Source: Escherichia coli (GTDB lineage: Bacteria; Pseudomonadota; Gammaproteobacteria; Enterobacterales; Enterobacteriaceae). Taken from it: a DNA stretch of 64,000 nucleotides. The notes under the pieces are model-generated. The model ran no database searches and had not been told where the DNA came from. It saw only the letters and a program-made list of their open reading frames with translations. The DNA lies in NCBI RefSeq assembly GCF_003334785.1, contig NZ_QOWV01000002.1. One strand, written 5' to 3'. Positions 43,295 to 44,090 of the stretch are shown here, in pieces (the first letter of the stretch is position 1; the number at the start of each line of letters is the position of its first letter). Position numbers and translations under genes: made by a program.

Positions 43295-43388
43295 TGTACC
43301 GACCGGGCAGTGTTGCTGCCCGGTTCAAACATCATGGGATTCTGTGGTAAACTTCTCGCGATTTTGTGAAATCCTGGTTGAGGTATCT

Positions 43389-44090
43389 CTGAACACACCG
43401 GCACAGCTCTCTTTGCCACTTTATCTTCCTGACGACGAAACCTTTGCAAGTTTCTGGCCGGGGGATAACTCCTCTTTACTGGCCGCGCTGCAAAACGTGC
43501 TGCGTCAGGAACATAGCGGTTACATCTATCTCTGGGCACGCGAAGGCGCGGGGCGCAGCCATCTGCTGCACGCGGCTTGCGCGGAATTGTCGCTGCGTGG
43601 CGATGCGGTGGGCTATGTCCCGCTGGATAAACGCACCTGGTTTGTTCCGGAAGTGCTCGACGGTATGGAGCATTTGTCGCTGGTCTGTATCGACAACATT
43701 GAGTGTATTGCAGGCGATGAGTTGTGGGAGATGGCGATTTTCGATCTCTACAATCGAATTCTGGAATCGGGCAAAACACGGTTGTTGATCACCGGCGATC
43801 GTCCACCGCGGCAGTTGAATCTGGGATTACCGGATCTCGCGTCGCGACTCGACTGGGGGCAGATCTACAAATTGCAGCCACTTTCTGATGAAGATAAGTT
43901 GCAGGCGCTACAGTTACGCGCGCGTTTGCGTGGTTTTGAACTGCCGGAAGATGTGGGGCGTTTCTTGCTGAAGCGGCTCGACAGAGAAATGCGCACGCTA
44001 TTTATGACGTTGGATCAGTTGGATCGTGCGTCGATTACCGCGCAACGTAAGCTGACCATTCCGTTTGTGAAAGAAATTCTGAAGTTGTAG
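43389..44090 (+). CDS. hda: DnaA-inactivating AAA+ protein Hda (non-AUG CUG start)
   Basis: Track ORF 43344-44090; mature Hda is 233 aa beginning at the CTG codon that encodes L in ...VSLNTPAQ ([19 protein letters not shown]...); the start assignment rests on prior knowledge, not on the sequence alone. Confidence 0.8.

Follow-up and report, generated by a model that had tools for sequence, protein, structure and literature searches.

Initiation of Escherichia coli hda at a CUG codon that is conserved across Enterobacterales

Translation of hda in the 64,000-nucleotide stretch of Escherichia coli DNA analysed here (the window) very probably starts at the CUG codon at position 43389 and gives a Hda protein of 233 residues, the 15 in-frame codons upstream corresponding to leader and putative promoter DNA, with their GTG inside a -10-like block, and the CUG presumably setting a low translation rate. 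The CTG start of hda is not novel, being already published and already present in the reference annotation. The first-pass annotation of this DNA had proposed that hda initiates at CUG and had labelled the proposal as established knowledge, which was the correct label; the initiation site itself was borne out by RefSeq, EcoGene 3.0, tetracycline-inhibited ribosome profiling (TetRP), the construct of PDB entry 5x06 and a comparison of 85 species. Nothing changes for the annotation of E. coli, the CTG start being on record both in the reference annotation and in the literature. The order-wide conservation of the CTG, of the GAGG and of the 5-nt spacer is a modest addition of the present comparison.

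The mechanical ORF list contains a plus-strand ORF of 248 aa (43344..44090) with a GTG start at 43344-43346. Its first 15 codons are GTG GTA AAC TTC TCG CGA TTT TGT GAA ATC CTG GTT GAG GTA TCT; codon 16, as read from the sequence, is the CTG, and the frame continues from there as CTG AAC ACA CCG GCA CAG CTC TCT TTG CCA CTT (Table 1). The first-pass annotation had described a 248-aa product from an upstream start and had placed the CTG at about 43389, and both the description and the coordinates were exact. The form initiated at the CTG has the N-terminus fMet/Met-NTPAQLSLPLYLPDDETFASFWPGDNSSLLAALQNVLR, and the form initiated at the GTG begins MVNFSR... The gene lies downstream of uraA and is followed by arsC and bepA on the minus strand, the segment 41963-46071 corresponding to the upp-uraA / hda / arsC / bepA neighbourhood of E. 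coli. A 951-nt query around the hda start had matches in all 5426 complete E. coli genomes, with 100% identity to E. coli JKHS016, 99.9% identity to K-12 MG1655 and 1801 E. coli records in the 95-99% identity band. Of 5427 E. coli records, 5423 showed an identity of at least 99% over the 101 nt around the start.

Table 1. Window coordinates of hda, of the elements around its start and of the structured RNAs.
Feature	Position	Strand	Basis
CTG initiation codon of hda, read as fMet	43389..43391	+	RefSeq CDS start, literature, ribosome profiling, invariance 85/85
hda CDS as translated, 233 aa + stop, product DnaA inactivator Hda	43389..44090	+	RefSeq, NCBIfam, PDB 5x06
Shine-Dalgarno GAGG(T), 5-nt spacer TATCT before CTG	43380..43384	+	85/85 loci
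15-codon in-frame extension of ORF (GTG start, MVNFSR...)	43344..43388	+	probably untranslated; putative 5'UTR + promoter-like DNA
QLSLPL beta-clamp-binding motif, Hda codons 6-11	43404..43421	+	invariant in all close relatives
In-frame TTG, codon 9; first canonical start 3' of CTG; not start	43413..43415	+	comparison
Extended -10-like block TG-G-TAAACT	43345..43353	+	conservation; putative promoter function
Hairpin at uraA 3' end, no U tract	43301..43325	+	-22.2 kcal/mol, z = -3.3
iscRS stability element	523-632	+	Rfam, above gathering score
ryfA sRNA	8007-8310	-	Rfam, above gathering score
IS128 sRNA	8442-8650	-	Rfam, above gathering score
sroE sRNA	21479-21570	+	Rfam, above gathering score

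Several other features of the window were noted. Residue 69 of Hda (43593-43595) is Leu in the window and Gln in K-12 and in PDB 5x06 (AELS-L/Q-RGDAV; Q69L), and the hda region carrying Q69L was found at 100% identity in just two complete genomes among the matches listed. A 232-aa ORF with a GTG start lies on the minus strand at 43081-43779, antisense to the 3' end of uraA and to the 5' end of hda, and probably arises artefactually from GC-rich coding sequence of the opposite strand. The intergenic segment between hda and arsC (44102-44200) contains two inverted REP-like palindromic units in a BIME-like arrangement, the arms of which (44102-44118 and 44184-44200) show 88% complementarity and enclose nested pairs. 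All four Rfam matches in Table 1 are expected for this region of the E. coli genome.

The N-terminal sequencing behind the CTG start of hda is reportedly that of Su'etsugu et al. (2008, J Biol Chem), a paper known to us through its citation in EcoGene 3.0. In the RefSeq/PGAP annotation of K-12, hda measures 702 nt (233 aa; WP_001307333.1) and its first base corresponds to window position 43389; the same start is given to a strain whose sequence is identical to that of the window (WP_072005141.1). The part of EcoGene 3.0 that deals with hda (PMC3531124) presents it as the first proven chromosomal CTG start, citing Su'etsugu 2008. Start-site ribosome profiling, which the first-pass annotation had proposed as a check, is already published and locates the hda signal at the CTG site. 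In Table S3 of Nakahigashi et al. (PMC4909307), the manual verdict on the TetRP data for hda is "3. 2014: signal at 2014 initiation site", and this site is the CTG. The table records a 45-nt shift of the hda start between the 2006 annotation (U00096.2, 2616097-2616843) and that of 2014 (U00096.3, 2618075-2618776), and hda is classed under the 2014 site, not as "multiple", with the TetRP signal away from the 2006 GTG site (PMC4909307). The E. coli Hda that was crystallised (PDB 5x06) consists of a 20-residue tag followed by MNTPAQ...; it matches residues 1-233 with E = 1.5e-155, DnaA chains matching at about 1e-13.

These data bear directly on the alternative that Hda is made mainly from the GTG at 43344, as the 248-aa form given by the ORF track and by the 2006 annotation, to which we give next to no weight. 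The frame is open from this canonical GTG, the gene was so annotated in U00096.2 (2616097-2616843), and many automated predictions have the 248-aa form; the published start-site data contradict it, with the TetRP signal at the CTG site, and the CTG has replaced the GTG as the start in both EcoGene and RefSeq. Nothing resembling a Shine-Dalgarno sequence precedes the GTG apart from a GGGA located 4 nt upstream, which also argues against this start.

The CTG start was then considered in a comparison set of 85 Enterobacterales loci. A scan of species-representative genomes provided 80 Enterobacteriaceae loci, with 93-99% protein identity, and loci of Yersinia, Erwinia, Proteus and Dickeya were added via exact-protein look-ups; codon use and upstream starts were counted on 81 Enterobacteriaceae. 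The codon homologous to hda 43389-43391 was CTG in 85/85 loci, and GAGG preceded it with a spacer of exactly 5 nt in every one of them. CTG is the commonest codon in E. coli, and for this reason a CTG leucine codon alone is uninformative. Among the 81 Enterobacteriaceae, Hda possesses 32 sites at which leucine is invariant, and codon 1 was the only one to be written with a single codon, the other 31 using two to six. Only 4 of the 104 invariant four- or six-fold degenerate sites were fixed at the nucleotide level. Judged from these alignments, the CTG at 43389 can be regarded as standing beyond chance, with GAGG 5 nt upstream and nucleotide invariance in 85 species, while synonymous sites elsewhere vary. 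The third positions of codons 2-10 were also unusually conserved, and part of the invariance of the CTG may thus reflect a general constraint on the initiation region. Residues 2-8 of Hda are conserved as protein.

The in-frame sequences flanking the CTG on both sides were informative. In 49 of the 81 Enterobacteriaceae there was no in-frame ATG, GTG or TTG between the nearest upstream stop codon and the CTG. Downstream, the first canonical start was at codon 30 at least in 20 of the loci devoid of an upstream start (85 loci considered), and residues 2-29 are conserved. No usable canonical start exists there, so that a near-cognate start is the only route to the conserved N-terminus in those species. 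E. coli itself has the canonical GTG 43344 in frame, and this reasoning does not extend to it. The TTG at codon 9 was also considered as a start and was rejected: initiation there would cut the QLSLPL motif, and TTG is found there in 42 of the 85 species, an equal number having CTG.

The extension upstream of the CTG behaved differently from the CTG itself. Its frame was shifted by one-base indels between the leader and the Shine-Dalgarno sequence, even in a divergent E. coli (locus L008), stop codons were found 4-14 codons upstream of the CTG in most genera, and a GTG was in frame at -45 in only about 9 of the 81 Enterobacteriaceae. This lack of conservation, with indels within Escherichia and stops in most genera, again argues against the GTG as the main start of Hda. 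The first-pass annotation held the upstream in-frame extension to be probably untranslated, a view supported by the TetRP data, by the broken frame in relatives and by the alignment of the ORF to NCBIfam models.

The 248-aa ORF passed the curated equivalog cutoffs of two NCBIfam models, NF005982 (472.1 bits for a cutoff of 268) and TIGR03420 (279.2 bits for a cutoff of 194.8). The alignment of NF005982, a model of 235 positions, begins at residue 14 of the 248-aa ORF, position 1 of TIGR03420 aligns to the Q of QLSLPL, and residues 1-13 of the ORF are covered by no NCBIfam model. The QLSLPL sequence at the N-terminus of Hda is the beta-clamp-binding motif. It occupies residues 6-11 of the CTG-initiated protein and would occupy residues 21-26 with the GTG start; it has the same placement throughout the close relatives, where its sequence is invariant. 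In distant Hda clusters (150 representatives), the predicted N-terminus was usually followed by a QLxLxL motif after 0-12 residues, with 3 as the commonest distance. These short N-termini fit a CTG start and would not fit a 20-residue prefix before the clamp motif, which is atypical of the family and constitutes a further argument against main initiation at the GTG. The position of the true N-terminus matters for the function of Hda: it leaves five residues ahead of the clamp-binding motif. The close homologues carry Pfam domains PF00308 and PF22688, and Hda possesses the AAA+ domain homologous to domain III of DnaA (PDB 5x06, DnaA chain matches).

Automated predictions of hda in close relatives showed a scattering of lengths, with products of 225, 233, 235, 238, 241 and 248 aa, a consequence of CTG not being accepted as a start by gene callers. 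The 248-aa form is common among them (P0002, with 3510 member sequences). The hda gene may serve as a calibration case, the mechanical ORF track being too long by 15 codons. For uraA, the mechanical list gives an ORF of 443 aa from a TTG at 41963, and RefSeq a product of 429 aa from an ATG at 42005; the segment 41963-42004 is another 5' overextension by the ORF track. In Yersinia, Erwinia, Proteus and Dickeya (L083-L086; locus 1495-1509), the conserved CTG is preceded at a distance of two codons by a GTG fused to the Shine-Dalgarno sequence (GAGGTG). This GTG, found outside Enterobacteriaceae, is used by gene callers and by NF005982. Its Shine-Dalgarno spacing is zero, and it may consequently not be a real start, in which case the 235-aa calls and the 235-position NF005982 model may be two residues too long outside Enterobacteriaceae. 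The invariant CTG, GAGG and 5-nt spacer in 85 species could guide the annotation of hda in other Enterobacterales.

The alignment of the region between uraA and hda displayed, from 5' to 3', a conserved hairpin at the 3' end of uraA, a variable stretch and the sharply conserved sequence TG-n-TAAACT. The TG of TG-G-TAAACT in the window is formed by the last two bases of the GTG of the ORF track (43344-43346). All 85 loci had a TG-n-TAnnnT sequence at a distance of 33-39 nt 5' of the CTG (35 nt in the window), and the -10-like hexamer was TAAACT in 74 and TAGACT in 7 of the 85 loci. Column conservation was at least 0.9 in the block compared to 0.3-0.6 in its flanks. The block was kept in Proteus, in which a gene other than uraA lies upstream. 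The -35 position was weak, with a best match of 2-4 of 6, and in a simple promoter scan the 43345-43353 block was below threshold, with 8/12 hexamer matches. From its sequence, the TG-n-TAAACT block looks like an extended -10 sigma-70 promoter of hda. Were the block to serve as the hda promoter, the mRNA made from it would begin near 43360 and would not include the GTG at 43344; in any case the overlap of this GTG with the conserved -10-like block speaks against its use as the main start. No proximal transcription start of hda was found in the published start-site data consulted, the sole start assigned to hda by Kim 2012 being a 2-read start inside uraA.

It is possible to read the same conserved TGTGnTAAACT block as the site of a regulator, for instance a weak DnaA box on the minus strand, instead of a promoter or besides it. 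We consider this unlikely. The minus-strand sequence at 43343-43351 (TTTACCACA) is one mismatch away from TTWTNCACA in 41 of the 85 species, the unconstrained base of the block coincides with the N of the box, and a control of hda by DnaA would, in our opinion, make biological sense. Position 4 of the box, a T in both the stringent and the relaxed consensus, is an A in 85/85 loci; two to three mismatches exist in 44 of the 85, and the outer CA of CACA is unconserved. Moreover, the conservation runs through ...AACT, which is needed by a -10 hexamer and not by a DnaA box. With the normally invariant T4 mismatched in every species, this sequence is unlikely to be a DnaA box. In the literature searched, "hda promoter" was not found together with DnaA. 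The promoter reading of the block is retained below.

The hairpin is located between the uraA stop codon (43292-43294) and the promoter-like block of hda, and compensatory changes were visible among genera in the alignment of its stem. It was not called by the terminator scan because it lacks a T run. The hairpin may act as a leaky terminator or as a 3' stabiliser, and allow read-through into hda. This leads to a second alternative, dual initiation, in which most of the Hda would come from the CUG and a minor extended isoform from the GTG on upp-uraA read-through transcripts. A hairpin devoid of a U tract makes read-through plausible, E. coli, E. albertii and a few Citrobacter have the GTG in frame, and dual start sites have been reported for other genes (Nakahigashi et al., PMC4909307). 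The manual TetRP call for hda is nevertheless "2014 site" and not "multiple", and an extension without protein conservation is unlikely to correspond to a selected isoform, so that dual initiation appears very unlikely, slightly less so than main initiation at the GTG. Upstream of hda there is also an out-of-frame ATG ORF of 11 codons at 43334-43369 (ATGGGATTCTGTGGTAAACTTCTCGCGATTTTGTGA). It was considered as a regulatory uORF and discarded as probably meaningless: E. albertii has ATA in place of the ATG, and the sequence around it is variable in other genera.

We propose the following sequence of events for the preferred reading, initiation at the CUG. The promoter of hda itself would give transcripts that begin about 15 nt 3' of the GTG, so that the 15 in-frame codons beginning at 43344 would be untranslated leader and promoter DNA. 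Ribosomes would bind the GAGGU Shine-Dalgarno sequence (43380-43384), the initiator tRNA would be set on the near-cognate CUG (43389-43391), and the product would be the 233-residue Hda, in which five residues precede the beta-clamp-binding motif. The CUG would throttle translation despite a good Shine-Dalgarno sequence, probably because it pairs poorly with the initiator anticodon, and this would fit roughly 100 Hda molecules per cell. In reporter constructs, CUG supports about 1-2% of AUG initiation, with values of 0.02-3% across constructs (bioRxiv 10.1101/063800), and cryo-EM revealed that the first position of CUG pairs weakly with the initiator anticodon (PMC11497404). A cell is estimated to contain about 50 Hda dimers, and over-initiation is suppressed by extra copies, from which the chromosomal level of Hda appears to be limiting (PMC3905854). 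It is plausible that the CUG was selected to keep Hda scarce, and the suggestion of the first-pass annotation that a CUG start means low, tightly set amounts of Hda is a reasonable one. No start-codon swap at the native hda locus was found in the literature searched. Masking or exposure of the hda start by mRNA structure was evaluated on the segment 43358-43430, from the putative transcript start to +40, and was rejected, the fold being no more stable than that of shuffled sequences (z = +0.81). The initiation region is thus not unusually structured, and the codon, not mRNA folding, is the likely throttle.

Modelled on the AUU codon of infC, a more elaborate proposal can be made, in which the CUG and the invariant GAGG with its 5-nt spacer would constitute a device tying the synthesis of Hda, and hence the rate of DnaA-ATP inactivation, to the fidelity of initiation, the IF3-to-ribosome ratio and the growth state. 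Separately, the GTG would lie inside an extended -10 promoter of hda, and the extension would not be transcribed from there. This proposal is speculative and we hold it to be rather improbable, if less so than the alternatives weighed above.

The gene described here can be compared with several known systems. The hda gene of K-12 (b2496; U00096.3, RefSeq) and that of the window are the same gene with the same codon, at 99.9% identity to MG1655 over 951 nt, and the two Hda proteins differ by a single amino acid, Q69L, which is irrelevant to the start codon. The Hda homologues outside Enterobacterales and the HdaA of Caulobacter have in common with it the AAA+ Hda fold and a QLxLxL motif a few residues from the N-terminus. 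The predicted starts of the distant homologues are canonical, the two distant loci examined starting at GTG, and the CTG start appears to be specific to Enterobacterales in the present sample. Near-cognate starts that keep expression low are known in E. coli from infC, which encodes IF3, and from pcnB, both of which have an AUU start codon. The AUU of infC makes its translation sensitive to IF3, a factor that discriminates against non-canonical starts. The three genes share a near-cognate start, AUU in infC and pcnB and CUG in hda; a dependence on IF3 is established for infC. The second confirmed CTG start of E. coli is that of yfjD, a gene unrelated to hda in which, as in hda, the annotated canonical start was replaced by a CTG; it was predicted by conservation and by inspection of the ribosome-binding site, and confirmed by start-codon mutagenesis (EcoGene 3.0, PMC3531124).
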